This document shows, one piece after another, positions 1 to 42,847 of a stretch of 64,000 bases of DNA. The stretch's first letter is position 1; each line of letters begins with the position of its first letter. The DNA lies in contig CAUSWF010000002.1 in assembly GCA_963535465.1 (NCBI GenBank), forward strand, positions 64,606 to 128,605, written 5' to 3'. This DNA is from an uncultured Erysipelotrichaceae bacterium. GTDB lineage: Bacteria; Bacillota_I; Bacilli_A; RF39; UBA660. The translations under genes and the position numbers were made by a program. The notes under the pieces are model-generated. The model saw only the letters and a list, made by a program, of their open reading frames with translations. It searched no databases and was not told where the DNA came from.

Positions 1-1943
1 GGAGAACCTACCTGTCTTACTCTTGGTATTTTATTAGGATCTGGATAAGTAGCACGAGGTCTATTTATAAAGTATTTATAAAATCCTCTATCTCTTGCCC
101 ATGTAAGCATAGATACACGAGTTGCTTCTATATTAGCTTGACAATTATAATACATTAACATTTGCATAGCTGTTTTGTAAGCAACTCTAACATCGTCAGG
201 TCTTGCTAAATAGTAGGCTACATACATTGGTTCTTGATTTCCAAAAGCTCTTTTCTTTATAGTAATACAGAATTTAGAAGGAGATTTAGTAGCTTCAGAT
301 GTTTGATCTTGTCCTATATCAATAGAGTCAATTCCAGCTACATATAAATTTTTCATTTCTTTATAAGAAATTTTATTTCCTTCTTCATCTTCTGATTGTA
401 ATAACCATAATGGTTGCTATATTATATGAACTTCGCCTGTATTAGTTGGAATAAACTAAACATCTGTAATATTATCACACATATCCTATTTTCTTCCATT
501 ATTTGTTTTAAATATAAATTTAAATTCTCCATGTTGTACTTTAGGACCTTGCTTATGTAAACGTATCTAAGCTAACTAATCTGCAAGTAAAACCTTATTA
601 AATTTATTATCTCCTTCAAGGGCAAAGGCTTCTTCAGCAGTAAAACAATACTCAGCACAGTATGTTACTAAAGCTTTAGGATCTTTATATCTGTCTCTAT
701 GTTTTTGATAATGTTCTTTAGCTTTTACTTGGTCAACAACTCCTCTAGAATCTACCATATCAGGTAAATCTAAAGCAGAATAAGATGGAATAAAAAATCC
801 AGTAAATACTTGACTTCCATCATCAGTGTAATTATGTCTATAAGGCAATACAAGATAGGATTCTGGATCATAATATATTGTTTTTAATCCATCCAAGGCC
901 GCACCCGAGTCCCCTCCAGTACCACCTGCTATAAGGATACCCATTTTATTACCTCCAACATCTACTAAAGCTTCTCCTTGAATAAAAGATTTTAGTAAAG
1001 TCGGATTAGATCCAGCTTCTTCAAACATAACAAGTTCCGCACGATCACCTCTTACTTTTGAAGGTTTATCAGCAACAATGCCTTCAATTTGAGACTTCCA
1101 TCCATCTTCTACTTTTTGTCCATTTATTATTTTATAAAAAGAGGCTCTTTTAATATCTGCCTTATCAACAACTTGTCTTAATTTAAAAAATCCTCCATCT
1201 GTTTTATCATTTAGGAAAGTTAAAGCTCCCCATACTTTCTCTAGAGTTTTTTCTAATTTACCAGAATCAAAAGCAGTAATCATAGTAATACTATCTCTAT
1301 AACAAGAGTACTCATTAGCACATACAGATGCTAATATTTCCGAAAAACCTACAGCACGGCTTTTCATCATACATATATTTCTTCTTAATAATTTACATAA
1401 TTCTAAATAATGAAAGAACTCATACTAACATACCATAAACCGTGGAAATATATTTTTACGTGCTGTACCAGCTTTTTCTACTCTAGAATTTTTAAGTTGA
1501 TAGTAATTTAAAAAGAAATAATTACATCCTGTAATAGTATAACCATTAACAGTCATTCCATTACGGCATCTTTTATATTCTTGATTCCAGAAATCTCTGT
1601 ATAATTTAGATCCAAATTGATATTGACAATAATGTCCTGTCTTTTCAAAATTATCTCTTGCTTCTGTAAACCATGAAGGATTAAAATCGAGACCGTGTAT
1701 TGCATCTATTGGTTTATATCCACATATTTCGTAGGATTGTGTTCTATCAAAAAAAGATATAGTCTAACTAATTGGGTAATCCCATTCAAAATTAGTTCTG
1801 ACTATATCTTTCTCTATATCCTAAATAAATTCCTTTTCTTCCTTAGCTTCGGCCTGTTTTGTAGCATCTATAATAGACTAAACCTCATCAGGAAGTTTAA
1901 TTTTTCTAGGACGACCTCTTTTACGTTTTTTAATTTCTTCCAT
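1..1943 (-). CDS. terL: Terminase large subunit, C-terminal end runs off the window start; TAG read as sense
   Basis: ATG at 1943-1941. The frame stays open to base 1 only if nine in-frame TAGs are read through (plus-strand cta at 1878, 1821, 1764, 1425, 576, 567, 486, 456, 417). ORF-track fragment 576..1370 plus the flanks give FLNYYQL, MFEEAGSNP, ILIAGGTGGDSG, AGIDSID and NIEAT, which are TerL ATPase/nuclease-type motifs. Confidence 0.85.
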
Positions 1944-3855: not shown

Positions 3856-4076
3856 AGTTTAATTAAATCCTTAGTATTAAAAATTGCTTCCTATAATTTA
3901 TTATCTGTTGAGAACCATCTACATTTAATTCCTCGAAGAATTGGTTCTTTATCAGCATTTAGATGCTTGAATATTGTTGTTTCTTTCTTTATTACCAGCA
4001 TAGTAGGTTTATTAGGAATATCCTATTTAAGCGTTACTATATCTCCAGGCATAAAGTATATTTTATCATTTATCAT
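3852..4076 (-). CDS. Small DUF2158/YodC-like protein (74 aa), recoded
   Basis: ATG 4076-4074, TGA 3854-3852 (ATGA overlap with the next gene). Two in-frame TAGs. GDIVTLK(TAG)D...TMLV...IKCRWF resembles the GDxVxLKSGGPxMTV...CxWF pattern recalled from memory. Confidence 0.45.
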
Positions 4077-4662
4077 TATTATTAAATCTTTCTGTTAGTC
4101 CAGAGTTAAAAATAGCTATAAGACTATGTTCATTAACAAGAACAAAACCTTTACGATAAAATGGTATTATAGTTTCAGATGGTTTACGCCACATTACTAT
4201 ATCACCTACTTTAGTATAAGTGCATTTAGTTCCTACTTCCATAACTTTTCCTACTTTAATAAATGGATCTTCTTCATGCATAGCACCATCTTCTCTACTT
4301 TTATAAATAGGTGCTTTACCTCCAAGATCAACAATTAAACCATCAACTTTTTTAATTCGTTGAAAAGGATTAACTACAAAAGGAGAAATAATTATGCCTT
4401 CGTAAAGAGGTTTCATTTCTAAAGTATCTAGGTTAATGTCTTTACTATAATCTGTTAATTGTTTGTTATAATTATCTAAATTAGATAAATATTCATTTAC
4501 ATCTTCTTTATGCTTATTTTCTTTTTCTATAACAAGATCATCTATTGTTTGATCTTTATTTACTATGAAACTTTTAGAATCTTCTGAACTTACTTTGATT
4601 GCTACTTTTTCTTTATTAGACGGAGTAGTATTAACGTCTCTTCCATTAATTGTTCTTATCAT
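4066..4662 (-). CDS. Hypothetical protein, C-terminal half possibly GroES/Cpn10-like fold
   Basis: Intact ORF-track ORF. KPLYEGIII...GKVMEVG...KVGDIVMW loosely resembles the Cpn10 pattern. Weak. Confidence 0.4.
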   Translation of the reverse strand: MIRTINGRDVNTTPSNKEKVAIKVSSEDSKSFIVNKDQTIDDLVIEKENKHKEDVNEYLSNLDNYNKQLTDYSKDINLDTLEMKPLYEGIIISPFVVNPFQRIKKVDGLIVDLGGKAPIYKSREDGAMHEEDPFIKVGKVMEVGTKCTYTKVGDIVMWRKPSETIIPFYRKGFVLVNEHSLIAIFNSGLTERFNNNDK

Positions 4663-4663
4663 A

Positions 4664-4903
4664 TTACCATTTATTACTAGGACATTTTTCTTCTTTTACA
4701 GAAGTTTTTAAATTGATAAAACATCCACATAGACCACATATTTTTTGATTATCTATTACCTCTAAATATTTACATCTATTACAATACTTTAATCTATTAA
4801 AAGAAAGCTCTTTATTTTTTCCAATAGTATAATTGAATAAACCTTTTATTATATGTTTAATTTTCGTTGGAAAATTCTCCATAATATTTTTTAGCTGCTT
4901 CAT
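4664..4903 (-). CDS. Small Cys-rich (zinc-ribbon-like) protein
   Basis: ORF-track ORF with CNRC...CGLCGC...CPSNKW. Paralogous to 5474..5740. Confidence 0.5.
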   Translation of the reverse strand: MKQLKNIMENFPTKIKHIIKGLFNYTIGKNKELSFNRLKYCNRCKYLEVIDNQKICGLCGCFINLKTSVKEEKCPSNKW

Positions 4904-5480
4904 TCCTAGCTTTAACAGCTTCTTCTAATGTATCATAACGTCCAATATATTTAGTTTTATTATTTAATGTAATTTGGGCAGTCCACTTATTTTTATCTTT
5001 TGAAAAATATACACCTTTATGTCCAGATGTATTATTTTTTGGGACAGTACAATTACATAAATTTTGTTGGTTTGTACAAATTCTTAGATTGCATTTTCTA
5101 TTATCTAACCCATTATGATTGATATGATCTATCAATATTTTTGGATCAGTAATATTTAAAATATACCTATGCAATCTTCTAAATTGTTTATTATTAGAAG
5201 TACAATAATATGTATTTCTTTGCAGATCTGATTTATGCCATCTTATAGCTTTTACTTTTTCTATATCTTCTATATCTATTAAAGCTTTTCCACATATTTC
5301 ATTATCCCTATTTATTAAAAATATTTCAGCATGATCGTCAACTATTTCTATATGGTTTGTTTTATCTTTATACGAATATTTAAAAATTTTTCCGTATCTT
5401 CTTATTTGTGTATAATGTTTAGAACATAATCCATTAGCACAAACTTTTTTACCACATCCTTCAATTTTACATATTACCAT
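4857..5480 (-). CDS. HNH homing endonuclease with C-terminal AP2 DNA-binding domain
   Basis: DHINHNGLDNRKCNLRICTNQQN (HNH) followed by SGHKGVYFSKDKNKWTAQI...GRYDTLEEAVKARNEAAKKYYGEF (AP2). Confidence 0.8.
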   Translation of the reverse strand: MVICKIEGCGKKVCANGLCSKHYTQIRRYGKIFKYSYKDKTNHIEIVDDHAEIFLINRDNEICGKALIDIEDIEKVKAIRWHKSDLQRNTYYCTSNNKQFRRLHRYILNITDPKILIDHINHNGLDNRKCNLRICTNQQNLCNCTVPKNNTSGHKGVYFSKDKNKWTAQITLNNKTKYIGRYDTLEEAVKARNEAAKKYYGEFSNEN

Positions 5481-5740
5481 TGTTCACAAGGGCAAACACT
5501 ATCCCTATTTTTTGTTTTATATTTTAAAACACAGCCGCATCCTTTAAAATAACCATCTTTCTTTTCTAAACTAACATCTTTTGTTTTAGGATTCATATAT
5601 AATTTAGGATTACATATTCCTCCGAACTCATCCTTATATAAAGGACATTTTTTACATATATCTATTCTTATTTTAGATATATCCTTATTAAGACCAAGTA
5701 ATTCATTTACATGACCTTTTATTATATTGCCAACTTCCAT
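5474..5740 (-). CDS. Small Cys-rich (zinc-ribbon-like) protein
   Basis: CKKCPLY...GGIC...GCGCVLKYKTKNRDSVCPCEQW. Paralog of 4664..4903. Confidence 0.5.
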   Translation of the reverse strand: MEVGNIIKGHVNELLGLNKDISKIRIDICKKCPLYKDEFGGICNPKLYMNPKTKDVSLEKKDGYFKGCGCVLKYKTKNRDSVCPCEQW

Positions 5741-5776: not shown

Positions 5777-7693
5777 TTAATATTCTATCGGTTTAAGTTT
5801 GGCTAATTTTTCTTGTTTAAAAACAGACTTTTTATAAAATTTTAGCATTGATTCTACTTCTTTCTTTAAATAAGGTAAATGATAAACTGTTTGATTATCA
5901 TTATGATCAAAGTGTACTAATATTAAATCTTTAATAGTATATTCTGGATTAATTTTTTGTAACATCCATGCATAAGTAGATAACTGTAAAGCATAATGCC
6001 AGTAATTGCAATCTTCCAAAGTGTTCAATGGATACTTCATTTTAACAGAACTACGAGTTTTAGTATCAAAGCCACTATGTTGTTTGATTTCTTTATTAGT
6101 ATTATGTGTAATTATACATTTATTAGTAACTAAAAAAGTATGTAAAGGGCTGTCTACTTCTAAACATTGTGTTGGAATAGTTTCTGTAATTTCTACTTTA
6201 TTAATATTTCTAAATGAATTTTTATCTATTTTTGGAAATTCAATTTCTTGATTTCTTATTAAAAAAGGATTTAATCCATTAGTTGAGAAACATACATCCC
6301 AAGCAATAAATTCTTTACCATTACATTTTTTTATTACTTCAAAAACAGTAGATTTTATACCTAATGTTCCTAATAATTTTACAGTACAATCTCTTTGCCA
6401 TTCTTGGCCCGTAGACATTACAAAACGTTTTCTTTTAGGATGATAATAACCATCAGTATCCATTAATCCTCTTAATAAGTCTAATCTTTGATTAAATGAA
6501 GCTGTATAATACTCTTCTGGAATATGTTTATTTTTTAAAAGATTCATTTTATTTAATAAAGTTCTTAATCCATAAACAGTCCTCATTTCAGTATTTTCTC
6601 TATCAGGATTATGTTGGGCATTTTCCCCTATATCAAAGCCACGATGTTTTAGTTCATCCCATAATTTAGATTGACTTGCTTGCGTAATAATACCACAATC
6701 TTTTGAACCATCACCTAACCAAACTCCTAATAAATAAGGATCTATTAGTAAATCTTTAGTTGGAGTATTAATAGGTTTTGGATTTAGTATTTTAGGAATT
6801 GTATAAGAATTTCTAGTATAAGTTTGCATATAATTATAAAGTTCCTTTGTAGTTATTACTCCTTTAGTATAAGGTGTTTTTTTACTTTGATTTTTAAATG
6901 ATACTTCCCAACGGTGATCTTCATCAGCTACTATAGTGTCTCCGTTATCAAAAGTTATTTTGAAGCATGGATTATTATGTATAGATGATTTATGCAAAAT
7001 TCGTGTAGGATTACCGTCTCCATCAAAAATAACATCCCCTTCTTTTACAGCTCCTATAGTAGTCCATCCAGAATTTGTTAATATTTCTGTGTCTAAAGGT
7101 AATCCTTTCCAATCCATGACTGTTATTTCATTACCTTGTTTAACTAATAAATCAATCTGTCCTGCAATTCTTAGCATGTTATCAGGAGAAGTACGAGAAA
7201 TTAAGTATTCAGGATATACTCCATTTTCTAAATCTAACGCAGTTCTTCCTTTATCGCATATAAATTTACCTCCTACACCAAATTTCTTTAGTGATACATT
7301 AGCACCCATCTTATACATACTTTGCTCTAGATCTGAATGTATTTTAGTACCTCTTTCACAAGATTCTCTATTAGTTTTATCCCATTCATCTAAAATACCT
7401 TGTTGTGCTTTATTAAAATCAAGTTCAGTAATATCATACGTACTTAAAAGTTCTTTAGGTATTTTGTGTGTATTCAACAAAGATTTTCTTTCTATTTTCC
7501 AAGCATCTGAGGGAATTAACTTTTCTAATGCCTTATATCCAGACCAAAAATCTTTATCAAAGGGTTGAGCAAACTTTTCTATTAAAGTTGTTACTGAAAT
7601 AAATCTATCATTTGTATCTGTATTCCAGTATACATGGTCATTTTCACTGAATGCAATGCTTCCATTCTGTTTGTCTATTTTCATATTATTCAT
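5777..7693 (-). CDS. PD-(D/E)XK (RecB/Cas4-like) nuclease interrupted by an intein
   Basis: Extein motifs are ERGTKIHSDLE, GQIDLL...VMDWK|..|TNK (D-x-K-T restored on splicing) and YALQLSTYAWML (QxxxY). Residues 197-531 are intein-like. Confidence 0.8.
   Translation of the reverse strand: MNNMKIDKQNGSIAFSENDHVYWNTDTNDRFISVTTLIEKFAQPFDKDFWSGYKALEKLIPSDAWKIERKSLLNTHKIPKELLSTYDITELDFNKAQQGILDEWDKTNRESCERGTKIHSDLEQSMYKMGANVSLKKFGVGGKFICDKGRTALDLENGVYPEYLISRTSPDNMLRIAGQIDLLVKQGNEITVMDWKGLPLDTEILTNSGWTTIGAVKEGDVIFDGDGNPTRILHKSSIHNNPCFKITFDNGDTIVADEDHRWEVSFKNQSKKTPYTKGVITTKELYNYMQTYTRNSYTIPKILNPKPINTPTKDLLIDPYLLGVWLGDGSKDCGIITQASQSKLWDELKHRGFDIGENAQHNPDRENTEMRTVYGLRTLLNKMNLLKNKHIPEEYYTASFNQRLDLLRGLMDTDGYYHPKRKRFVMSTGQEWQRDCTVKLLGTLGIKSTVFEVIKKCNGKEFIAWDVCFSTNGLNPFLIRNQEIEFPKIDKNSFRNINKVEITETIPTQCLEVDSPLHTFLVTNKCIITHNTNKEIKQHSGFDTKTRSSVKMKYPLNTLEDCNYWHYALQLSTYAWMLQKINPEYTIKDLILVHFDHNDNQTVYHLPYLKKEVESMLKFYKKSVFKQEKLAKLKPIEY
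6101..7105 (-). mobile_element. Intein (335 aa) with LAGLIDADG homing-endonuclease domain; class-3-like WCT signature
   Basis: Block A is GLPLDTEILT (Gly, not Cys/Ser, at position 1). Block B is TIVADEDHRW (W two residues after His). LAGLIDADG motifs are LLGVWLGDGS and LLRGLMDTDGYY. Block F is TQCLEVDSPLHTFLV (Cys where Asp is usual). Block G is IITHN followed by Thr+1. Confidence 0.75.
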
Positions 7694-8560: not shown

Positions 8561-9331
8561 ATGGCAGTAAATAATAGTATTTACAATAACAAAAATCCTA
8601 ATATTAAATATAATATTTAGAATTTATTTACTACGGCTAAAATTGCTTCTTTATTAAAGAAAGGAGGTAATGTACATAGAACAGATATATTTCCAGGGGT
8701 TATAGATACTAATGCTAATTTTGATAATATGAGTCCTAGGAAAAAAAGAAAAAAGATTAAAAAACATCAAGATGGAGGAGAAATAGAAGTGGTTGAATAT
8801 AATCCTGTAGTATTATCTTTAAAAAAATTAGATTATCCAGAACTAAATAATATTAATACTAAAACTTTAGATATATCTGGATTATCTTTTGATAAATTTA
8901 CTCCACCTTCTATAAATAATATGCGCGTATAGGAAAATTATCCTATAAATCCAAATATTAGTTTAGAAGATTTATTAAAACAAGAAGGAGTAAATGCAAA
9001 AGTTTCTTCTGGTTATAGAAAGGGAGCAATATCAAAAAATGGACATAAAAGTAATCATAGTCATTTAAATTCTGATGGAACTCCAGGAGCTTATGATATA
9101 GTTCCTAATGATGGTAACTTTGAAAATCTTAGAAAGGAGATATATGGTAATCCACGTATAGTTGCATGGCTTAAAGCTAAAGGTTGGGGTATTTTAGAAG
9201 AAACTACTCCTAATATTATGAGAAAAACTGGAGCTACAGGTAAACATTGGCATTTTGGTCCTGATACTGCAGCCTTAGATATGTCTAGATAGAATGGAAT
9301 TAATTATACTAAATTAGGAGGTTTATTATGA
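8561..9331 (+). CDS. Peptidase M15 (VanY / L-Ala-D-Glu peptidase)-like cell-wall hydrolase, recoded
   Basis: ATG 8561, TGA 9329-9331. Three in-frame TAGs (8618, 8930, 9293). SSGYRKG...SNHSH...GAYDIV...GKHWHF matches the SxHxxGxAxD...HxH zinc-peptidase pattern. Confidence 0.6.
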
Positions 9332-10470
9332 TAGAAACTACAAAATATGATAATATAGATCAGTAGTTTGAATATCCAGATTTACCAAGTATTAATAATT
9401 CTAATAATACTATAATAGCAGATGAGGCTACTGAAAATTATCTTAGGGCTGTTCAAAATGAATATGCTTTAAAGGCTTAGAGAGATAAAGAATTATGGGA
9501 ACAACAATAGAACGTTAAAAATAATTAGCCTAATTAGTAGTATTCATTTACAGATAATAATATACCTCAAATAAGTAGTTCTAATAAACAAGGATCTTAG
9601 AAAGTAAAAGAAATACTTGATAATATGATACATGATCCTACTAAAAAAACTATATTGTTAAAAATTGCAGAAAAAGAATCTAATTTTAAAATAGATGCTA
9701 AAAATGCTAAAAGTTCTGCTAGCGGTTTATTTGGATTTTTAAATTCAACTAAACAAAAATATGGTTATGGTAATACTGCTGAATAGTAGATTTAGGGAGC
9801 ATCTAAATTATATGATGCTCATGCTACTTAGTTATAGTAGTATATAAATAAATATGGAACTAGAGGTAAATCAATAACTTAGTTAATGTATGGTATGTGG
9901 TTTAGACCTACTTCTTTACTTCATTATTTACAAACAGGTCAAGATGATTATAAAGATGCACAAGGAACTAGTTTAGAAAAAATATTTGCAAAAATGGCTA
10001 AAAATGGAGGAATATTAAAAGCATAGGATGGAATAATAATTCCAAAAGCTCCTAATACATTTAGATAGTATGGAATAGATCCTAATAAGTTTGTTAATAT
10101 GTGGAACGGACTTGTTAATAAAGGAATATCTCCACAAGTAGCATTTGATGCTACATGGCAAGCTAATAAAGAAGTTCCTAAAGGATATTATTCATATGGA
10201 AAAAAGAAACCTAATCTCAATAGTTGGGTAGAAGCTGCTTCAGATAGTTTAACCACAGGAGCATATAAAAAAGCAAAGAATGCTTAGAATTTTGATTAGT
10301 ATAGATAGGCTACTTTTAAATATAATAAAAATCCAGAATATACTAATTGGTTAAAAACTAATAGATAGGATGCTGTTAATTTTATAAACAGATATAGACA
10401 ACAAAACGGAATAGTAGGTAAACCTATAGCTTAGCTTATCCCAGTAACTTAGATAATTAATAACGTATGA
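9328..10470 (+). CDS. Lytic transglycosylase (SLT)-domain protein, recoded
   Basis: GGAGG precedes ATG 9328; TGA at 10468-10470. I counted 22 in-frame TAGs, including TAG-TAG doublets. IAEKESNF...SSASGLFGFLNST resembles the SLT catalytic ES...GLMQ region. Confidence 0.6.
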
Positions 10471-10745
10471 TAAAGAATTTTATAAAAAGTATGTTACTAG
10501 CTACTCAAGGATCTATAAGTTCTAAAAGAGTTTGTGGAGTTCTTGGTTGGTTAGTATGTTTAGGTATTTGTATTTACTGTACAGTTGGTTAGATACAAGC
10601 TCCTATACTAGCAGACAGTGTTCTTATAGGTAGCGCAGCATTAATGGGCGTAGATAGTGTTACAGGTATATGGAAAAATAAAAGAGATATAAATATTATA
10701 AAAGAAAATGAAACTAATGTAGAACAAAATAATAGTTTAGTATAA
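10467..10745 (+). CDS. Holin-like small membrane protein (92 aa), recoded
   Basis: ATGA overlap with the upstream gene. Two hydrophobic segments (VCGVLGWLVCLGICIYC, ILADSVLIGSAALMGV). One in-frame TAG, TAA stop. Confidence 0.5.
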
Positions 10746-10750
10746 TAAAT

Positions 10751-13183
10751 ATGACTCAAATAAAATTTGATAAATCTAAAAAATATTATGATAGTAAATT
10801 AAATAAATACTATGGTTAGGGTATTTGGTTTAAGGATACTAATGATGATGGTAAATATAATGAAGGAGAATCTTTAATTCCTATGGGAAATAGAATTAAA
10901 AATTCTAATAATTCTTATGTACAATTAAATTCTGATGGAAGTAGAACTTTATTATATTCTAAAGGTAAATTTACTAATACTAATATTTCAAATGTAGATA
11001 AATAGGCTATATCTAAAGGATTAATATATGGACGCAATGCTTCTTTACAAAATAATAAATATGTAAGATCTAATAATGGCATAAGTAATTGGGATATAGA
11101 TACAGTTAGACAAAAAAATAAAGATGGAAGTTATACAGATATTAATAATAATACATCTTTTATATATAATAAAAATAAATATATTGGAACAGCTGGCAGT
11201 AAAAATGTAATAGATTTATATCATAACGTAGTAAGTAATGATGGAGGTAAAACTTGGTCTAGAAATTCTACAACTCAAAAATCTGTAAGTCCTTTTATTA
11301 CAAGACGCTATGGTACATAGCCTTTAGGTTAGTATTTAAATCCAGATACTAATATTAAAACAAATTATGCTGAAGTTAATTTTGGAGATACTAATGGTTA
11401 GAATCAATATTTAAAAAATAATTATTGGGTATATGATGATGGTAATGGTAATGTTCAAACTATCGGATTTAGGTATAAAGATGGTAAAGATTATGCGTTT
11501 TTATCAGACGATAATAATTTTTTAAATGATAATGTTTCTGGTATTTTAAAATCTAAATAGAGTATAGGTTCATCTAAACTTAAATCTTATAGTGCTGGTT
11601 TTACTCCAGGTATGGAAAAATGGAGAGGAAAAGGTGGATGGTATACAAATGTAGGATAGGATCTCCCCGATATAGTATACGGTGCTAAAGATGGTTATTT
11701 ATATAATAAACAAGGATAGCAAATAGGATTTAATGCAAATGGTACTTATTATTTAAAAAATAATATTATTGCTTCTGAAGAAAAACCTACATTTAAGAAT
11801 ACTTTAGTAAATGGGTGGTCTGGCTTAGTACAAGACTTTAGTAATTTAAGTTCTAGATTTGATCCTTCTAATAATTAGGGTTTCCAAAATAGATTTACTG
11901 GAATATTTGGAGATTTAGGTAGAGGAATACAGCATGCTGCATAGGGTACTGTAGGGGCATTAGCTACTGCTATTATTCCAGATAGTTTGAATGAAACCAT
12001 AGGTAAGTATGGTTAGATTACCGATATAGGAAAAGATTTAAGAAGTATAACTAGTTTATTTGGTAATGGGAAATTTGTTACACCTTGGGATTAGGATAAC
12101 CATGGCCTTGTTGATTACGCAGATATAATTGGCAACAAACAAGGTCTTCAAGATATAAACGATGCATTAAATGGAGCAACTGTTTTAATCGGAACTAAAG
12201 GATTAGGCACAACAAAAGAAGTTTTAAAAGGAACACTGCAGGGAACAAAAGCTATGAGGTTTACTGAAGCTGCTCTTAAAGGAGCAAAAAATACTTCTAA
12301 AAATATATATTCAAATGGAGCATATTATACAGGAAAAGCAGGATTACGTCCAAGTAATATTACTCCTATGATTAATGCTGTTAAACAAGGTTTTAAAAAT
12401 GCACGTACTTATTATGAAGAATCTGCTCCAGTAGTAACAAAACCAACAATAGTTGAGTCTAAACCAGTAACAGCAGGTACAAAATAGTATATACAACCTA
12501 CAATAAAAAAACTTAATCCAAATAAAGGTGCTGAAGTAGTATATAATATGAAATTTAATCCTGTTTAGGAAGCTTAGAATATAATGGCTAAACCTAAATT
12601 TATATTTAAAGAAAATTCTATAGTACATGTTCCTAAAGGATTACCTGTAAAAGTAGAATAGCCTGTACTAACATAGCAACCTGTTGTTAAACCGTCTGTA
12701 CAAAAAATTCCTAAAACTGCACCTAAACAATTAACTTTAGAGTTTGTGGAAGATAAACCTAAATATGTACAACCTATATTAAAACAGCTTAATGATGCTA
12801 AAAAAGCTGAAATTGCAAGTAAAATAGTTCCTATAGATTATGCAAATGTAGCACATACTATAATGTAGTCTAAACCTACTATATAGCTTCCAGAATTTAG
12901 ATTTTCTTCTAAATTTAATCCTGTTTCTGAAGCTAAAGCTAGAACAGTTAGTAATACTTCAAATGTAGGAAATATTCCTAATAAAAATATTAAGTATGTA
13001 GAAAGTCAACCTACAGTTAATAATTCTAAAATACTACAGTGGAAGCAAGCTAAAGAAATTAAAGCAGTACCTAAAACAATGAAACCTAAAAGTAAAAGTA
13101 AAATATTGAAAAAAGTAAATAAAAAATATTTAGGTGGAATTTTAAATAATAAATTTAATAATTGGATAAATGCAAATAACTAA
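10751..13183 (+). CDS. Large virion/tail-associated hypothetical protein (810 aa), recoded
   Basis: One frame is open from ATG 10751 to TAA 13181-13183 with 19 in-frame TAGs. It contains track ORF 12254..12487. C-terminal internal repeat: Y(I/V)QPxxKxLN...KFNPV(TAG/S)EA occurs twice. Confidence 0.55.
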
Positions 13184-13697
13184 TTTTATAAAATATATAT
13201 AGAGTTGGGAAGGAGGTTATGCTAATATACCTCAAGATAGTGGAGGTCCTACTAATAAAGGAATTACCCTAACTACTTTCCGATCTATATTTGGGCAAAA
13301 CAAAACAATAGATGATTTAAAGAAAATGACAGATGAGCAATGGTGGAAAGTATTTAAAACTAAATTTTGGGATAAATACAAAGCAGATAATATTAAAGAT
13401 GAATGGTTAAGATATTTATTAGTAGACTGGTTATGGTGTTCTGGTCAATGGGCTATTACTAAAGTTTAGAAATTACTGGGATTAAATCCAGATGGAATTG
13501 TCGGAGACAGAACTATAACAGCTATTAATAGTAAAAATCCTAAACAATTATTTGATACTATTTGGAAGATGAGAGAAAAATTCCTTCAAGATATTTCTAA
13601 AGGTAAGAATAGTATATTTTTAAAAGGATGGCTTAGACGTCTTAATGGGCTTAAATATGGTTATTTAGTAACTAGTAATAATAAAATATTAAAATGA
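13170..13697 (+). CDS. GH108-family N-acetylmuramidase with PG_binding_3-like C-terminus (endolysin), recoded
   Basis: WEGGYANIPQDSGGPTNKGIT is the GH108 signature, and LLGLNPDGIVGDRT is PG-binding-like. In-frame TAGs at 13200 and 13467. TGA at 13695-13697 overlaps the next ATG. Confidence 0.75.
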
Positions 13698-13924
13698 GTT
13701 TTATAACAAATTTTAAAGAATCCAATAGGTATAAACACTTTTGGTGTGCTATACCTATTGGATTAATTTTTACTATACTTTGTGTTATTGGGTGTGCAGG
13801 AGGTATGGAATTTAAAGATAAACAATATAGTAATTATTGGGATTGGAAAGATTTTGGATTTACTGTATTAGGAGGATTTGTCGGACAGATATTATAGATT
13901 ATATTAATATTAATTTTATTATAA
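13694..13924 (+). CDS. Small membrane protein (76 aa), lysis-cassette partner, recoded
   Basis: Hydrophobic segments WCAIPIGLIFTILCVIGCAGG and GFTVLGGFVGQIL(TAG)IILILILL. TAG at 13895, TAA at 13922. Confidence 0.5.
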
Positions 13925-15273
13925 TGCCAAAACCTTTTGATTTAGATTTACATAAAAGTTATAATGTAAATAATAAAAGTAAAAATTATAAGTCCTTTAC
14001 TGGGGCTAATGGAGAATTATGGTATACTGATAGACCTTTAATTACTTATAATAATAGTAAATTAGCTTATGTAACTAACGGAAGAAATGCTAGATGGGTT
14101 ACTGTTGGAAATGAATTTAATACTTAGCCTTAGATGTTATCTAGAGAACAAGCTGTAAAACGAGATCTTAATAAACCTAGAATACAAGCAGCTAATGATT
14201 TAACTTAGGGTTTAACTGATCTTATTACAGGAGGAATGGCTGGATCATTAAGAGAAGGGGCTTAGAATCTTACTAAAGGTAATTATATTAAGGGTATTTC
14301 ATAGTTAGCTACACCTGCCATGTTTGGATCTGGAATTGCAGGAAATATAGCAAGAGCAGGTGTCGGATCTTATAATTTATTAAATGAAGATAGAGTTAGA
14401 AAAACATATAAATATATTAATAATAAGGAATATGGGAATGCTGCTGTTTCTGGATTAGGAGATATTTTAAATGGAGGTATGGCTATACATGGTGGTACTT
14501 AGTTATTTAAAAACTACAGAATAGTTGAACCTAAATTATTAAGTGCTAATTTAAATAATAAAAATATGCCATATTACTCTTAGTTTGAATAGTAGGAAGC
14601 ATAGCAACATATGATATCTGATATAAAAAGAGGTTATTAGAATTTTAAAGATTGGATGACGAATCCTCATTATTTAGAATCTACTTTAGACAACATGGAA
14701 GAAGCTAAAAGAATGGGTTTAAAATATACACCTACTTATGATAAACCTCATTATAAAGCACTAATGTAGAACGGTATTAAAATTAATTTTAAGAAATAGA
14801 TGCAGGGTAATGGTGCTACTAGTTAGTTTGGTGCATAGGCCGGACATCCTGCTGAAGTTGATTTAAATTTAGGATCACCACAATCATTTTTTAATACTGT
14901 AAGACATGAATCTGGGCATGCTGCTTATCATGGTAATGGGTTAACTCCAGATGAACTTAAATATTTAAGATTTAAAACTCATTAGGCTTTTATAGATAAG
15001 GCTGAGGCTGGTCCTTATGATTTTCATTAGTAGACTGGTGAAGCTGCTATGAACGGTAGAGATTTAGGACATGATTTAGGAATATCTGTAGGACAATCTT
15101 ATCCAGGATATTAGAAAGCTTTAGAAACATTAAATTCAGGACTAGGCAAATCTACAAAAGATGGAATGATTAAATTATTTAAAACAGATGAACAATCTAT
15201 GCCTTATGTATGGAAATTACTTAATGGTACTTTACTAGGAGGAGCTTTAGTAACTAAATTTAATAATAAATGA
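13924..15273 (+). CDS. HExxH zinc-metallopeptidase-motif protein (449 aa), recoded
   Basis: ATG 13924 overlaps the upstream TAA. 19 in-frame TAGs, TGA at 15271-15273. Contains VRHESGHAAYHG. It joins track ORFs 13837..14127 and 14320..14502. Confidence 0.55.
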
Positions 15274-15275
15274 AT

Positions 15276-15313
15276 AAAGGCGAGCATCAATTAAGATGTT
15301 CGCCTTTCTTTTT
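15276..15313. terminator. Intrinsic terminator closing the recoded plus-strand block (possibly bidirectional)
   Basis: aaaggcga (15276-83) pairs with tcgccttt (15300-07), followed by a T-run. It lies 3 nt after the TGA of 13924..15273. Confidence 0.7.
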
Positions 15314-15576
15314 AAATTTAAAATTATGAAAAACTTTATTAATTTCTTTTTCTAGATCTTCTTTTATTTTTCTATTAATTCTATCAGCAATTTCTTGCTA
15401 CCTAATACATATTTTCCAAGAAGATTTTTCATTTTCTATCTGGATCTATTGATAGTTTATTTAACTCATCTTGATAATCTAAAAACCAAGATTCGTCTAA
15501 ACATTTATTATCTGTACATAACTTTCTAAATGTATATAAATTCTTAATTAAAAACTTAGAAAGTTTCTTAAGTATT

Positions 15577-15780: not shown

Positions 15781-15782
15781 AG

Positions 15783-15870
15783 TTGCCTCGCTAGGATTCG
15801 AACCCAGATTGACGCCCTCAGAAGGCTACAGATTTAGAGTCTGCCGTAATAACCATTATACTACAAGGCA
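15783..15870 (-). tRNA. Suppressor tRNA, anticodon CUA (reads TAG), 88 nt with long variable arm (type II architecture)
   Basis: Reverse complement: TGCCTTG TA GTATAATGGTTATTAC G GCAGA CTCTAAA TCTGT AGCCTTCTGAGGGCGTCAAT CTGGG TTCGAAT CCTAG CGAGGCA A. It has a 7-bp acceptor stem (U1-A72), a 7-nt loop with C34 U35 A36, and A73. Confidence 0.85.
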
Positions 15871-15876
15871 TTAAAG

Positions 15877-15948
15877 TTATCCCACTAGGATTCGAACCCA
15901 GACTAAGAGGGTTAGAGCCTCCTGTGCTAGCCGTTACACCATAGGACA
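15877..15948 (-). tRNA. Suppressor tRNA, anticodon CUA (reads TAG), 72 nt, tRNA-Gln-like
   Basis: Reverse complement: TGTCCTA TG GTGTAACGGCTAGCAC A GGAGG CTCTAAC CCTCT TAGT CTGGG TTCGAAT CCTAG TGGGATA A. U1-A72 is present, and the D arm is nearly identical to the phage tRNA-Gln(UUG) at 31788..31858. Confidence 0.85.
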
Positions 15949-16134: not shown

Positions 16135-16503
16135 TTAATCATTTAAATACGTTACTAAGCGTTTTATTTCTGCACGTACTGTGTTATGTACTACAGTTTT
16201 AAACATATCAAGTACTTCGCTTGCAGTATTGTTTAAATTCCACTCATTGAGGGTTTTACCTGTTTGAGTTTCTACTTGCTCACAAGCTTTATTGAAAACA
16301 TCATCATCTAAATTATTTAAATAATCCTTAAGTTCTTTAGCAGATTTAAGTTCACTTTCATCACCAACTAACTTAATTGATATTGTTCCGTCTTCCTTAT
16401 TAATTTCATCTACTTTATAAGTAATGCCATCAATAATATAATTTTCCTCTTCTATACTATTTTCGGCAATACTATTAATTAAATTTTGTAATACTTCTTG
16501 CAT
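16135..16503 (-). CDS. Acidic hypothetical protein
   Basis: ORF-track ORF, no motif recognised. Confidence 0.5.
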   Translation of the reverse strand: MQEVLQNLINSIAENSIEEENYIIDGITYKVDEINKEDGTISIKLVGDESELKSAKELKDYLNNLDDDVFNKACEQVETQTGKTLNEWNLNNTASEVLDMFKTVVHNTVRAEIKRLVTYLND

Positions 16504-16707
16504 GTTTATTATTTAATTTTTAACTGTTACAATTATATATAAATATTAATTTATTACCAAATATAAAATGTTAATTTTTGTTGTTTTGTACTAAATTTTC
16601 TAATTTTAAAATTCTTTCTTTAAGCGACTTAATATCATTAGTATTCTTTTGTATTCTCTGTTCATGATTCTCAAGAACAGATATAATTTCTTGGTTTATT
16701 TCTTTTT

Positions 16708-18180
16708 TCATAATATAAATTTATAAATAGTTACTCTTTTATAATCTACTTGTTTTCTTGTCTTTTTAAATTCAGGAAAAAATGATTTTATTGTATTATT
16801 ATTCCATGTAAGTTGGTGTTCTTTTAATAAAGGTTTAAATATTTCCTGTATTTCATCTGAAGTATATTCTGATTTATTCAGTTCTACTAATTTATTATAT
16901 ATAAAAGGCAAGCCATGTTTAATTTTACTTGTAGCAATATTTGGTGTAAATGAATATTCCTCTGCTTCTTTTAATACTGCTAAACTATCAGAATAAATTT
17001 CACTAATTAAATCGTAGTTATATAGATCCAGTTTTCTAAGATTATCATCGTAAAATATCTTATCATTATGTTTATTAAGATATAAATTATAATAAGTATC
17101 TTTACTAAATAATTTTAATTCAGTTATATAATCATCAGCATCTAATTTATCTGTAAGTTCTGCTTTTCGTATACCTCTTCTTCTGGAATCTTCTACTAAA
17201 TTTAGAAAGTCTGTTTTAATAGTTCCTGCATATCTATGTTTATTTGTATTTAATATAAGTATACATTCATCTTTATATTTAGAATCTCGAAGTCGTCCAC
17301 ATACTTGTCTAACTTTAGTAGCTATATCTAATACTGTATTAGATACATTAGTATCTGATAATATTATACATAATCCATTTTTATCGTAAATATCACATCC
17401 TTCAAAAGCACATGATGTATAAAAATTTAAATGTTTTACTTCTGAATTTACTTCTGCATAATTACGTATTTTATTTTTACTATTTACTGAGCATACTACT
17501 CTATAATCTGGATTATCTAATTTTTTAATGATCGCATTTATTGTAGCTATAGAATTTAAAAATATATGTAAGTTTCTATCTTTATACATATCTATAATAT
17601 ATAATAATTCTTTCTGCACATAAAAAGTATCTCGAATATTTAGTTTAACAGGAACAGAATTTTGCCATTCATATGTAATTTGAGGTATATCCTTTAACTC
17701 TTCTAAAATACATTCAGGCTTAAGCGGAGTAGCTGTTAAGAATGCCCAATCTTTAAATTTATTAAAGTTTTGAAGAATATTTACAATAGCATCATTTCTA
17801 AAACTATAATCATTAAATAATAAGTGATATTCATCTATTAGTAAAAAATAATCTGGATAATTAGGAATTAACTCCATAAGTCTTGGAAGAGAATCATATG
17901 TAGCTATAATCTTTTTATATTCTAATGCTTTCTTTAAATAATTTTTAATTACTGTATTACCTACATCTCCCGTAACTCCTAGAACATTATCATTTGATTT
18001 AGATATTACTAAATTTTTAGTAGGACTAAGTATTAAACTATTCCGCCTAGCATTGATTTCAAGAGTTGTTCCGCCACAACCTGTGATTCCTTTATTAATA
18101 AGACAGTGTGATGGTAATTCATTAATTATATCTGATAAATATTGACACTTTTTGTCAATTAAAATTTTTTCATTTTGCAT
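16708..18180 (-). CDS. SF2 helicase-like protein with atypical motif I
   Basis: LLIDEYH (motif II DExH), FLTATP (motif III) and VRQVCGRLRD (motif VI). Motif I reads GITGCGGTT, with no Walker lysine. Confidence 0.6.
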   Translation of the reverse strand: MQNEKILIDKKCQYLSDIINELPSHCLINKGITGCGGTTLEINARRNSLILSPTKNLVISKSNDNVLGVTGDVGNTVIKNYLKKALEYKKIIATYDSLPRLMELIPNYPDYFLLIDEYHLLFNDYSFRNDAIVNILQNFNKFKDWAFLTATPLKPECILEELKDIPQITYEWQNSVPVKLNIRDTFYVQKELLYIIDMYKDRNLHIFLNSIATINAIIKKLDNPDYRVVCSVNSKNKIRNYAEVNSEVKHLNFYTSCAFEGCDIYDKNGLCIILSDTNVSNTVLDIATKVRQVCGRLRDSKYKDECILILNTNKHRYAGTIKTDFLNLVEDSRRRGIRKAELTDKLDADDYITELKLFSKDTYYNLYLNKHNDKIFYDDNLRKLDLYNYDLISEIYSDSLAVLKEAEEYSFTPNIATSKIKHGLPFIYNKLVELNKSEYTSDEIQEIFKPLLKEHQLTWNNNTIKSFFPEFKKTRKQVDYKRVTIYKFIL

Positions 18181-25267: not shown

Positions 25268-25353
25268 GGAGATTTAAGCCTAATTGGTAAGGCAGCAGTT
25301 TGCTAAACTGCCAGTAATCGTAGTAATATGATGTATAGGTCCTATAATCTCCA
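25268..25353 (+). tRNA. Aberrant tRNA-like element (Ser-GCU-like) lacking a canonical T arm
   Basis: Perfect acceptor GGAGATT/AATCTCC. D arm GCC TAATTGGTAA GGC. Anticodon arm GCAGT TTGCTAA ACTGC. Extra arm ATCGTA-GTAA-TATGAT. The T arm is replaced by the mini-hairpin tATAGGTCCTATa. Confidence 0.45.
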
Positions 25354-28766: not shown

Positions 28767-29540
28767 ATGAATCTTTTTAAAAAGAAAAAATATAAAATTC
28801 TAAAAGATGATTTTAGAATAATTGATGGTATTAAAGTTTATAGAATACAAGCTTTAAAATCATTTGCTAATGTAAAGAAAGGCGATTTAGGAGGATTTAT
28901 ACAATCTGAAGAAAATCTTTCACAACAAAATACTTGTTGGATATATGATGTAGCTATAGTTAAAGATGAAGTTAAAGTTCTAGACGATGCTAAAGTTTTT
29001 TCAAATTCTATATTAAGAGGTGTATTTACAGTAGAAGATGCTTGTAGTATTGTTGATTCCACTATTAAAGTTAAATTATGTGGTAGTATAAAAGATGGTA
29101 TACATCTTTGCGAAACTAATATAGATTCATATACTATGACACTTAAGACTGGAGTATTAAATAATAATGATATATATGCTACCAATTTAACAGTAATCGA
29201 CTCTTCTTTAAAATATGTAACTTGCAATGAAAGTAATTTATATTTTAATAATAGTTATTTATATGATGTAAAAATTAATAATTCTGTAACTTTAAATCAA
29301 GTAATGGCAAAACAAACTGAAATATCTTCAAATTCTGATATTTTTGTTTTTTTAAATAATTGGTCTAGCTTACGTTATTTTAATTACGTAGTTCCTAATA
29401 AGACTTGGTATGTTGGCTGTTTTATAGGTTCAGGAGAAGAACTTATTAAAAAAGCTTATAAAGACAGTGAATTATCTGGAAAAATGTATGAGAAATATGT
29501 TAAGTTTATAGAAAAACTAAATGAAGATAAGAACCCTTAG
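28767..29540 (+). CDS. Hypothetical protein (257 aa), repetitive beta-rich sequence
   Basis: ORF-track ORF. It ends in TAG (29538-40). Confidence 0.5.
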   Translation: MNLFKKKKYKILKDDFRIIDGIKVYRIQALKSFANVKKGDLGGFIQSEENLSQQNTCWIYDVAIVKDEVKVLDDAKVFSNSILRGVFTVEDACSIVDSTIKVKLCGSIKDGIHLCETNIDSYTMTLKTGVLNNNDIYATNLTVIDSSLKYVTCNESNLYFNNSYLYDVKINNSVTLNQVMAKQTEISSNSDIFVFLNNWSSLRYFNYVVPNKTWYVGCFIGSGEELIKKAYKDSELSGKMYEKYVKFIEKLNEDKNP

Positions 29541-35954: not shown

Positions 35955-36273
35955 GGGGCTGTTTGGTTTTGATTGTATAAGGAAGTAAAAATAACATGCA
36001 AAGACTGATGGAAAGACATCAATTCAAATTAAATGCTAAGGTTATTCCTATGAACAGCTTTGCTGTTCGCATTGCAGCTTAATGACTGCCGAGCTGGTAA
36101 CTTGCTTAGGAACAGAAAAGTTACAAATTTATAATTAAGTTATCCCTTCTTTAAAAAGGAAATTTTCATATTGCTAAATAATATAAAGATGATGTAACAT
36201 CTATAAAAAACTAAGCATGTAAAATTATTTGAGGTATTTATACAAGACGAGAGTTCGAATCTCTCCAGCTCCA
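35955..36273 (+). ncRNA. ssrA: tmRNA (SsrA), phage-encoded
   Basis: The 5' GGGGCTG pairs with the 3' CAGCTCC, followed by A. T arm GAGAG TTCGAAT CTCTC. The conserved ACTAAGCATGTA element is present. The tag frame 36035-36082 ends GCAGCTTAATGACTGCC, as in the E. coli GCAGCUUAAUAACCUGC, and the predicted tag is AKVIPMNSFAVRIAA. Confidence 0.85.
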
Positions 36274-36374
36274 CTTTAGTTGGCTACTGACTACAAAATA
36301 GTAGATGACTTCTAGGGCCGTTCAACATGTAAACAACCTAGGTAATGGCATACCTGTTAAAATCAAAGCATGCT

Positions 36375-38087: not shown

Positions 38088-38609
38088 ATGATTAGAAAAA
38101 GAAAAGTAAATTATCATTGTATTTACTGTCTTTGCATAGGAATCTTATTAGGAATTATTTTTAGTAATTCTAAAAAAGAACCTAATGCAAAAGATCAAAT
38201 TGAAATTAAGATGAATGTTATTAAGGATAGTGTTGTATTCGATACTATGATTGTTAAAAAACAAGTCATTACTAAGAAACTCACGTCAAATAGAGCACTC
38301 CCTCTTAACGAAAATAATTTGAGGAAAGTTTTAAAAGACAATAATGTATGCCAATCTCATATTGTTTTAGCACAAGCTAAACTTGAAACAGGTAACTTTT
38401 CTTCAAAAGTTTGTAAAACAAAAAATAATTTATTTGGACTTCGTAAGGGAAATACTTATAGAAGTTATTCTCATTGGTCTGAATCTGTTAAAGCCTATAA
38501 AAAACTTATTCAATCTAGGTACAAAGGAGGAAATTATTATTCTTTTTTAGATAGAATTGGATATGCAGGCGATAAAAGTTATACAACGAAATTAAAAGAA
38601 CTTGTATAA
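38088..38609 (+). CDS. Membrane-anchored glucosaminidase/muramidase (FlgJ/LytD-type domain)
   Basis: N-terminal TM segment. IVLAQAKLETGNFSSKVCKTKNNLFGLRKG matches the glucosaminidase AQaxlEtG...NNlFGi pattern. Confidence 0.6.
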   Translation: MIRKRKVNYHCIYCLCIGILLGIIFSNSKKEPNAKDQIEIKMNVIKDSVVFDTMIVKKQVITKKLTSNRALPLNENNLRKVLKDNNVCQSHIVLAQAKLETGNFSSKVCKTKNNLFGLRKGNTYRSYSHWSESVKAYKKLIQSRYKGGNYYSFLDRIGYAGDKSYTTKLKELV

Positions 38610-41852: not shown

Positions 41853-42159
41853 CAAACTAATAGTATTAATTAGTATTACTGTTATTATATTCTTTGGTTT
41901 TTGGTACTATGGAAATTATAATAATAGTAATACTATAATACATCATTATAAAAAAGATTCTGTTTATTACCAAAAGCGGGATAGTTTGCATAAAGTTAAT
42001 GATACAATATCTACTAAAATACAAACAATAGAACATACTTATGAAAAGAAAATTGAAACTATTAAGCGTATGCCTATTGATTCCGCTTATATCTTTTGGG
42101 CAGACTATATCCAAAGATACAGGATTAATAATGACTCCGCAACAATTAAGAACTACTAA
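41833..42159 (+). CDS. N-terminally membrane-anchored protein
   Basis: ATG 41833 gives MTRFQYNKLIVLISITVIIFFGFWYY. This start is preferred to the track start at 41773. Confidence 0.45.
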   Translation: MTRFQYNKLIVLISITVIIFFGFWYYGNYNNSNTIIHHYKKDSVYYQKRDSLHKVNDTISTKIQTIEHTYEKKIETIKRMPIDSAYIFWADYIQRYRINNDSATIKNY

Positions 42160-42400
42160 TCTAATATTTTTGGAACATGAAAAATGGTCTAAACAAATTC
42201 CTCTTCTAAAACAGCAAATACAAAATTATCAAAAACTTGATAGTTTAGCTTATAAACATGATTCTTTACAAACACAGCAATTAATAGATTTAAATAATAC
42301 TATTGATTTACAAGAAAAAAAGATAAATAAATTAAAGAAAACTAAAAGTTTTGGTATTGGAGTAATAATTGCTTTAATATTAGGATTGATATGCAAGTAG
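42041..42400 (+). CDS. Secreted/membrane protein overlapping the previous gene out of frame
   Basis: The signal-like N-terminus is MKRKLKLLSVCLLIPLISFGQ and the C-terminal TM segment is GIGVIIALILGLICK. It ends TAG-TAA (42398-42403). Confidence 0.4.
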   Translation: MKRKLKLLSVCLLIPLISFGQTISKDTGLIMTPQQLRTTNLIFLEHEKWSKQIPLLKQQIQNYQKLDSLAYKHDSLQTQQLIDLNNTIDLQEKKINKLKKTKSFGIGVIIALILGLICK

Positions 42401-42511: not shown

Positions 42512-42847
42512 ATGGATGTAGAGGATTCAAAATTCATAACTCTACTAACAAGAGTTGAGGCTATATTACATGATTCCTCAGGATACACTACTTACATATT
42601 TAAAAATATAGATGATAAAGCCTCTTTTTTATATAAATATATAATGTGTACAAGATATCCTAATTGGGAACATAGAGGTTTAAAGATTGGCGAAGAAGGA
42701 TTTTTAACTTATCAACCAGTAAATGAAGGGATTGATAAATGGTTTGATGGTTATAATTTAGTCCCTTATAAATTTTCAGCAAATAGGTTTATCAATTTTA
42801 TTAGTAAACCTAACGAAAAAATAATAGATAATAAATATATAATGTAG
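42512..42847 (+). CDS. Hypothetical protein
   Basis: ORF-track ORF. It ends in TAG. Confidence 0.45.
   Translation: MDVEDSKFITLLTRVEAILHDSSGYTTYIFKNIDDKASFLYKYIMCTRYPNWEHRGLKIGEEGFLTYQPVNEGIDKWFDGYNLVPYKFSANRFINFISKPNEKIIDNKYIM

Follow-up and report, generated by a model that had tools for sequence, protein, structure and literature searches.

Lysis-related genes of a large crAss-like phage in a late operon whose in-frame TAG codons probably serve as ordinary glutamine codons

We analysed a group of genes carrying in-frame TAG codons in a stretch of DNA of 64,000 nucleotides (the window), which is deposited as part of an assembly of an uncultured Erysipelotrichaceae bacterium (GCA_963535465.1, contig CAUSWF010000002.1, positions 64,606 to 128,605 of the forward strand). 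The genes were predicted to encode a muramidase of glycoside hydrolase family 108 (GH108), an SLT-type lytic transglycosylase, an M15-like peptidase and two small membrane proteins, one holin-like and one of 76 residues. A first-pass annotation had described them as lysis functions gated by recoded TAG. Our results indicate that they probably belong to the distal operon of a late module in which TAG is read as glutamine (genetic code 15) in a crAss-like phage of about 160 kb, and that their TAGs are ordinary glutamine codons of the late code.

Full-length products of the operon require UAG decoding

Open reading frames (ORFs) were read with TAG as a sense codon. The plus-strand genes from 8561 to 15273 then appeared as one tightly packed unit, predicted to be closed by a terminator hairpin (Table 1). 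ATGA overlaps join the M15-like gene to the SLT gene, the SLT gene to the holin-like gene and the GH108 gene to the 76-residue protein gene, which in turn shares a TAATG overlap with the gene of a 449-residue protein. The in-frame TAG counts given by the first-pass annotation for the M15-like, SLT, holin-like, GH108 and 76-residue protein genes (3, 22, 1, 2 and 1, respectively) agreed exactly with ours. Its claim that none of these genes can be completed without a suppressor was also borne out, as the full-length products of the operon require UAG decoding.

Among the five genes, no TAG-truncated product amounting to a full functional domain and no functional internally initiated product was apparent. 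In the GH108 gene, the catalytic EGGY motif comes after TAG11, with codon 53 as the next ATG in frame; the motif would therefore be absent from any unsuppressed product. Seven TAGs lie ahead of the domain in the SLT gene, and the M15-like domain (residues 130-249) is downstream of TAG20 and TAG124. The unsuppressed holin-like product would end between its two hydrophobic segments, and that of the 76-residue protein gene would miss the last nine residues of the second transmembrane (TM) segment.

At 28% guanine plus cytosine (GC), ORFs as short as 76-92 codons that lack TAA and TGA not uncommonly arise by chance, and the read-through ORFs might be regarded as decayed pseudogenes or as fortuitous frames of AT-rich DNA. 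This explanation is extremely improbable, and it is refuted by the conserved, full-length and syntenic homologs of all five genes, which were found on many contigs at 50-98% identity. Furthermore, strong Pfam and PHROG matches run across the TAGs, and suppressor transfer RNAs (tRNAs) are present.

TAG is read as glutamine in the late block

TAG-containing ORFs were limited to 1..15.5 kb of the window, where they occur on both strands. Genes from 16.1 kb on were TAG-free, and TAG is a rare real stop there, closing 4 of about 82 ORFs. The late block (1..15.5 kb) thus uses code 15 and the rest of the window the standard code. Most ORFs of at least 70 codons within the block hold TAG, including that of the large terminase subunit (TerL, 9 TAGs), and four minus-strand genes inside it are TAG-free (Table 1).

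Two tRNA genes with the anticodon CUA were found just downstream of the operon, on the opposite strand and convergent to it. The tRNA of 73 nucleotides resembles the phage's own tRNA-Gln(UUG) in its D-arm, U1 and 3' end. That of 89 nucleotides has a long variable arm of 5 bp, U1:A72 and A73, and showed no similarity to the phage tRNA-Ser when the two were compared. In alignments with a standard-code relative, TAG was most often matched by glutamine (7 of 24 well-aligned sites). At sites that differ between close orthologs, glutamine stood opposite TAG at 29 of 62, lysine being next with 10. From these two comparisons and the likeness to tRNA-Gln, we infer that TAG encodes glutamine. If the 89-nucleotide tRNA inserts another amino acid, UAG would become ambiguous. 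Both CUA tRNAs are kept in the close relatives L005, L023 and L024, and one only was found in the fetched loci of the more distant recoded relatives L007 and L008 (L-numbers denote loci fetched from relatives, L001-L003 being MT835470 and L004 MT835539; P-numbers denote homologous proteins). The genes adjoining the suppressor tRNAs (16135..18180) gave no Pfam match for a tRNA synthetase or a release factor, and a code-change module was therefore not detected in the window.

TAG is avoided by particular genes inside the late block. The PDDEXK exonuclease gene has no TAG among its 22 glutamine codons (P~6e-6 at the TAG share of the block), and none is present among the 21 and 9 glutamine codons, respectively, of the orthologs from two further recoded phages. 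A GroES-like gene in the block likewise lacks TAG. This avoidance is gene-specific and conserved, not merely positional, and hence the code split is real and selected.

The window belongs to a crAss-like phage

The GC content of the window is 27.9%. TerL, encoded at its left end, matched phrog_6681 (E 3.9e-62), and its closest database relatives are crAss-like phages: the best matches, at 46-48% identity, were two human-gut records that lack annotation, MT835470 and MT835539, and many Crassvirales genomes came next. Identical or near-identical proteins are encoded on public Crassvirales contigs of 158-166 kb, and the same products are present in the public gene calls of near-identical contigs. 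The window is accordingly assigned by sequence to a large (about 160-kb) crAss-like (Crassvirales) phage that is present in public assemblies.

The sister phages MT835470 and MT835539, both with about 45-50% TerL identity to the window, differ in code. In MT835470, TerL, the holin-like gene and the genes around them lack in-frame TAG, and the fetched stretch contains no tRNA with the anticodon CUA. MT835539 uses recoded TAG, and the match to its TerL is split into three separate pieces, which suggests introns or inteins.

TAG use is probably not directed at the core lysis genes

The first-pass annotation had related these TAGs to the published idea that recoding acts as a lysis timer. In such a timer, selection would keep TAG in the genes for the endolysin, the holin and their partner, and lysis would have to await the suppressor tRNA. 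There is a precedent in crAss-like phages of about 105 kb, in which a lysozyme-type amidase and a spanin are preferentially TAG-coded (Borges et al., 10.1101/2021.08.26.457843). We applied the criterion of Borges et al., TAG versus CAA+CAG, to the window, a single genome that gives low power. TAG made up 4 of the 16 glutamine codons (25%) in the GH108, holin-like and 76-residue protein genes, the lowest share in the block, against 89 of 200 (44%) elsewhere in it (p=0.19); the direction is thus opposite to that of a timer.

Codon turnover was observed among three orthologous loci of 85-98% identity, in which TAG interchanges with CAG or CAA. In the GH108 gene, CAG replaces TAG11 in two of the three loci and TAG100 in the remaining one, and the single TAG of the 76-residue protein gene shifts between the two conserved glutamine codons of its GQxLQ motif. 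TAG42 of the holin-like gene is GAA in all three, and the gene has no TAG at all in L024 and L007. (A GH108 pattern scan of IMG/VR yielded three close loci only, too few for family-level statistics.) In addition, the holin-like gene and the adjacent glucosaminidase-domain protein gene are in the standard code in MT835470, whereas MT835539 is recoded.

The first-pass annotation had also pointed to a standard-code glucosaminidase outside the cassette. This was confirmed: the gene is TAG-free and its product matches the Pfam Glucosaminidase domain (Table 1). The protein has a Cys/Gly-rich hydrophobic segment near its N-terminus (residues 7-28) and is predicted to be membrane-anchored, possibly of the signal-anchor-release type, and makeable without the suppressor. 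Therefore, not every wall hydrolase would be TAG-gated.

Several points favour a lysis-specific timer. The inspected GH108 orthologs and the orthologs and homologs of the 76-residue protein gene all keep at least one TAG despite its shifting position; the tRNA(CUA) genes adjoin the cassette both in the window and in L005, L007, L008, L023 and L024; and the ATGA overlaps could couple TAG-free ORFs to TAG-rich upstream genes. However, at a TAG share of about 42%, a gene would hold at least one TAG by chance with a probability of about 80% if it has 3 glutamine codons and about 99% if it has 9. With the low TAG share of the core lysis genes, the TAG-free holin-like orthologs, the standard-code pair in MT835470 and the TAG-free glucosaminidase, a lysis-specific timer is unlikely. 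What remains of the proposal is its fit to the published idea of late-gene recoding; a TAG preference specific to lysis was not seen, and TAG positions were unconserved.

In this lineage, the TAGs of the endolysin and membrane protein genes behave as neutral synonymous glutamine codons. Since these TAGs are neutral-like and sister genes use the standard code, the occurrence of TAG in every lysis gene is by itself no evidence for a lysis-specific timer. TAG is spread across late genes, shows no enrichment in the core lysis genes and interchanges with other codons; gating would thus act on the late module and not on lysis specifically.

Some results weigh against this interpretation. Each GH108 and 76-residue protein ortholog examined retains at least one TAG while its position moves, and the M15-like and SLT genes together are nominally enriched in TAG (25 of 41 glutamine codons, 61%, versus 39%; p=0.014, uncorrected). 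Because of these two observations, some gene-level selection for TAG is possible. Furthermore, the CUA tRNAs sit behind a small terminator-like hairpin, and the holin is holin-like by its topology and context only. A "floating lock" could also be imagined, in which selection holds at least one TAG in the GH108 and 76-residue protein genes while the position wanders and ATGA coupling covers their TAG-free neighbours; we regard it as quite improbable, though if true it would be code-gated lysis without any single conserved TAG.

On our preferred reading, in which the TAGs are ordinary late-code glutamine codons, host release factor 1 would terminate translation at the UAG codons of the operon before the phage tRNA(CUA) is present, and translational coupling may spread this block to TAG-free ORFs. 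Once tRNA(CUA) is available, the whole late module, virion and lysis genes alike, would be translated, and GH108 might then be let through to the wall by one or both of the small membrane proteins.

Table 1. Features of the window and their coordinates
Feature	Position	Strand	Size	TAG codons	Basis or remark
LAS/M15-like peptidase	8561..9331	plus	256 residues	3 (codons 20, 124, 244)	
SLT-type transglycosylase	9328..10470	plus	380 residues	22 (5.8% of codons)	
Holin-like membrane protein	10467..10745	plus	92 residues	1 (codon 42)	
Fast-evolving protein	10751..13183	plus	810 residues	19	
GH108 + PG_binding_3 endolysin (predicted)	13170..13697	plus	175 residues	2 (codons 11, 100)	
Two-TM protein	13694..13924	plus	76 residues	1 (codon 68, inside TM2)	phrog_38535 family
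HExxH protein	13924..15273	plus	449 residues	19	last gene of the operon
Terminator-like hairpin	15276..15307	plus			13-bp stem then T-run; closes the recoded operon
tRNA, anticodon CUA, long variable arm	15782..15870	minus	89 nucleotides		ARAGORN + Rfam
tRNA, anticodon CUA, Gln-like amber suppressor	15876..15948	minus	73 nucleotides		ARAGORN + Rfam
Glucosaminidase (GH73-type)	38088..38609	plus	173 residues	0	Pfam Glucosaminidase 1.7e-17; standard-code block
TerL	3..1943	minus		9	phrog_6681
TAG-free gene in the late block	4066..4662	minus		0	
HNH endonuclease	4857..5480	minus		0	
TAG-free gene in the late block	5474..5740	minus		0	
PDDEXK exonuclease	5777..7693	minus		0	
tRNA-like element	25268..25353	plus			Rfam 42 bits
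tmRNA	35955..36274	plus			Rfam 72.8 bits; standard-code block

Wall hydrolases of the operon

The GH108 muramidase named by the first-pass annotation was recovered by Pfam (PF05838, E 4.6e-21, 75.6 bits with a cut-off of 21.2), and the match spans residues 8-92 and positions 2-85 of the 85-position profile. PG_binding_3 (2.1e-10, 41.1 bits) and the endolysin family phrog_315 (8.5e-33) were also matched, and the assignment to GH108 with PG_binding_3 is solid at the level of sequence. The EGGY motif with its catalytic Glu is the hallmark of the family, of which the N-acetylmuramidase gp61 of coliphage N4 is the founding member; here it occupies residues 14-17 (S-W-E14-G-G-Y17). Hydropathy analysis gave no hydrophobic window, and hence no signal or TM segment. 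The protein is therefore predicted to be a cytoplasmic endolysin-type muramidase, which, having no export signal, would need a membrane-permeabilising partner to reach the wall.

The SLT domain claimed for the second gene was upheld through homologs, its own Pfam score being below threshold: PF01464 scored 20.0 bits against a cut-off of 21.3 when TAG was translated as X, and there was no match at E<=0.01 when TAG was translated as Q. The domain of P0036, which itself passes Pfam with 29.2 bits, shares 57% identity (E 1e-48) with residues ~93-223, and the catalytic motif is retained (A-E-K-E117-S118, aligned with A-Y-N-E-S of P0036). A conserved C-terminal domain is also present. These homologs support the identification as an SLT-type lytic transglycosylase.

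The claim of an M15 peptidase stood in part. The N-terminal ~130 residues of this protein are disordered and a domain follows at ~130-249. Searches with the protein against Pfam, PHROG and PDB sequences found nothing, and no listed homolog has a precomputed M15 Pfam domain. Nevertheless, S150, R153, H166, D179, H229 and H231, which form the substrate motif SxxR and the Zn-ligand motifs H-x(n)-D and H-x-H, are invariant in 36 sequences. Fold prediction was carried out on a public ortholog of 89% identity; the top structural neighbours of the predicted alpha/beta domain were LAS/M15 proteins at 20-23% identity, with fold scores below the usual significance. The invariant motifs and weak fold hits support an LAS/M15-like zinc-peptidase fold. 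In many relatives, the peptidase domain is fused to an SLT domain in one protein of ~410 residues; therefore, what the window divides between its two upstream genes is a single bifunctional enzyme in those phages.

A role in lysis or in wall penetration at entry is conceivable for the M15-like and SLT proteins, which may be virion-associated rather than lysis enzymes. The operon could accordingly be a mixed module for entry and exit, in which these two proteins, possibly together with those of 810 and 449 residues, are virion-borne and lysis is left to GH108 and a small membrane protein. Indeed, the SLT protein matches PHROGs of transglycosylases, baseplate hubs and tail fibers, including transglycosylases embedded in tail fibers; the disordered N-terminal region of the M15-like protein, the position of the operon beside packaging and structural genes, and hydrolase domains embedded in large proteins of relatives (981 residues in MT835470; 464-547 in L019 and L015) point the same way. 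TAG densities in the SLT (5.8%) and 449-residue protein genes (4.2%) exceed those in the 810-residue protein gene (2.35%), TerL (1.4%) and the GH108 gene (1.1%). However, the density in the M15-like gene (1.2%) is as low as that of GH108, there is a translational overlap between the SLT and holin-like genes, endolysin sets of several enzymes are known, and the literature on zeta crAss-like phages labels such genes plainly as lysins (PMC12386605). We consider a mixed module possible, with the balance slightly against it. It concerns the roles of the parts and is compatible with TAG being an ordinary late-code glutamine codon; if it is correct, "three lysis hydrolases" would overcount.

Small membrane proteins

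The holin-like protein has two hydrophobic segments (~21-43 and ~46-68) by hydropathy, and a charged tail in which the C-terminal 27 residues contain 4 K/R and 4 D/E. Such a topology agrees with its description as holin-like, whereas no Pfam or PHROG match, and no holin profile, was obtained, and all of its 185 homologs are unnamed or "hypothetical". Its gene lies 2.4 kb from the GH108 gene in the same operon. It is found near glucosaminidase-domain proteins in L003, L019 and L015-18, those in MT835470 and L019 being large proteins directly beside it, and it adjoins a pair of hydrolase and 76-residue protein genes in L007. In an integrated Bacteroides element, it is located about 1.8 kb from a glucosaminidase protein gene, and in L021 it stands alone.

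The 76-residue protein matched phrog_38535 (4.4e-13), with 89 homologs and 103 phage records, mostly of Bacteroides phages. The family is marked by the motifs ESNRxKH, MEFKDxQY and GQxLQ and appears to be a widespread two-TM membrane protein of Bacteroides phages. Its annotation is "putative periplasmic lipoprotein / VanZ-like", the lipoprotein label being that given in the cultured crAss002. A lipoprotein or u-spanin was considered and rejected: the Cys of the lipobox V-I-G-C34 is Val in P0138, P0164, P0194 and P0166, and the loop that separates the two segments has only ~20 residues.

The first-pass annotation had taken this protein as a lysis partner. It is a membrane protein often encoded by a wall hydrolase gene, after it in the window, L007 and L008 and before the endolysin in cr113_1. 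However, in crAss002 the family is flanked by TerL and portal, in unrelated 37-kb Bacteroides phages it is found close to Dam and other methylases, and these contexts weaken the idea of a dedicated endolysin partner. For both small proteins, the link to wall hydrolases is recurrent, not obligatory. By sequence and context, the holin-like protein, the 76-residue protein or both are candidates for the membrane-permeabilising partner of GH108.

The locus in relatives

Across relatives, the outline of the locus is conserved while enzymes are swapped. In L008 (157 kb), the order is NlpC/P60 plus glucosaminidase, Phage_lysozyme2, the 76-residue homolog and a 480-residue protein. In L007, an NlpC/P60-like hydrolase, called from its sequence and from the counterpart in L008, is followed by the 76-residue homolog and immediately by the holin-like homolog. 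The first-pass annotation had considered three hydrolase types in one cassette to be unusual. This did not hold, as L008 has NlpC/P60, glucosaminidase and Phage_lysozyme2 and the phage Lera has four lysin genes (PMC12386605).

The 810-residue protein had no Pfam or PHROG match; its orthologs in L023-25 share 55-70% identity, and the MT835470 counterpart at its position is the 981-residue protein with a Glucosaminidase domain. The 449-residue protein had no Pfam match and contains an HExxH motif (RHESGH); TAG accounts for 73% of its glutamine codons, the highest share among genes with more than two. Its gene is missing from L023 and L024, which are ~85% identical to the window and have the tRNAs ~530 nucleotides after the 76-residue protein gene. 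The 480-residue protein gene of L008 takes its place, the likeness being by position only. The 449-residue protein gene is thus a variable accessory gene.

Other features of the window

A 77-residue ORF (15296..15529) overlaps the terminator hairpin of the operon, has no homolog evidence and is probably no gene. A scan for sigma-70 promoters was uninformative, with 54 sites against 58.9 expected, the promoters of Bacteroidota and crAss-like phages being outside its models.

In the late block, the PDDEXK exonuclease contains an intein-like insertion of ~330 residues (~197-526) with a LAGLIDADG-like "LLGVWLGDGS" and the end "…THN|T". The insertion is present in MT835539 and absent from the orthologs of 301-307 residues in MT835470 and L008. 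A TAG-free HNH endonuclease gene lies near the exonuclease gene.

In the standard-code block, four plus-strand ORFs end in TAG (28767..29540, 42041..42400, 42512..42847 and 53649..55193). An active suppressor would extend them, for example the ORF 53649..55193 by 12 codons to 55229. This block also encodes a transfer-messenger RNA (tmRNA) with the tag peptide AKVIPMNSFAVRIAA; a phage tmRNA could matter where ribosomes stall or terminate at an unsuppressed UAG. In addition, a tRNA-like element that Rfam reports and ARAGORN does not call was observed right after the tRNA-Ser gene.

Discussion

Recoding of TAG to glutamine in late genes with suppressor tRNAs has already been published for crAss-like phages; a timing role for late or lytic functions was proposed, and code 15 was proven by proteomics (PMC7886860; 10.1101/2021.08.26.457843; PMC9523058; PMC12386605). 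What had been observed in the window is correct and adds an example to the published late-gene recoding, with no new principle. Its main added value is the ortholog comparison, in which TAG, CAG and CAA turn over in the endolysin and membrane protein genes. In practice, the genes of the operon can be annotated only under code 15. If recoding truly timed lysis, engineered control of the suppressor could tune or disarm gut phages, and the recurrence of code switches in phage evolution would be explained.

Like GH108 endolysins in general, the protein of the window is small and soluble, has no export signal and carries an EGGY catalytic domain followed by PG_binding_3. It differs in its two in-frame TAGs and in its setting, an operon of large proteins and not a compact cassette of holin, endolysin and spanin. 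The M15-like protein shares the invariant SxH...GxAxD and HxH with the LAS peptidases of MEROPS M15 (VanY/LdcB, VanXY, Ply500 and T5-type L-Ala-D-Glu endolysin peptidases). Unlike them, it has an extra insertion of five residues between His and Asp and no sequence match to Pfam M15 or PDB, and in relatives its domain forms part of a fusion with SLT. The holin-like protein has several traits of class II (two-TM) holins: it is small, has two hydrophobic segments and a charged tail at the C-terminus, and is encoded in an operon with wall hydrolases. In contrast to them, this protein matches no holin profile, a 2.4-kb gene separates it from GH108, and its family is also found on its own in L021 and within an integrated Bacteroides element.

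The phage of the window differs from those of Borges et al. (10.1101/2021.08.26.457843) in that its endolysin is GH108, which together with the two membrane protein genes shows no TAG preference, and in its size of ~160 kb. The large genome, many tRNAs, suppressor tRNAs and mobile elements recall the group of the zeta phage Lera (156-189 kb), in which four putative lysin genes and a holin gene are reported, three of the lysins and the holin having recoded stops (PMC12386605). Lera, however, recodes TGA to Trp, whereas the phage of the window recodes TAG to Gln, and the 43 genomes tabulated for that study (PMC12386605) do not obviously include the lineage of the window (28% GC, ~160-165 kb, amber). 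Genome size, tRNA richness, inteins and the PDDEXK nuclease within the structural block are in keeping with the large crAss-like groups of PMC7886860. As in the published code-15 crAss-like phages, TAG is confined to the structural and lysis block and aligned with Gln, a phage tRNA(CUA) is encoded, early and replication genes keep to the standard code, the code varies between close relatives, and inteins and a PDDEXK nuclease occur in the structural block. Unlike those phages, the window carries two structurally different CUA tRNAs.

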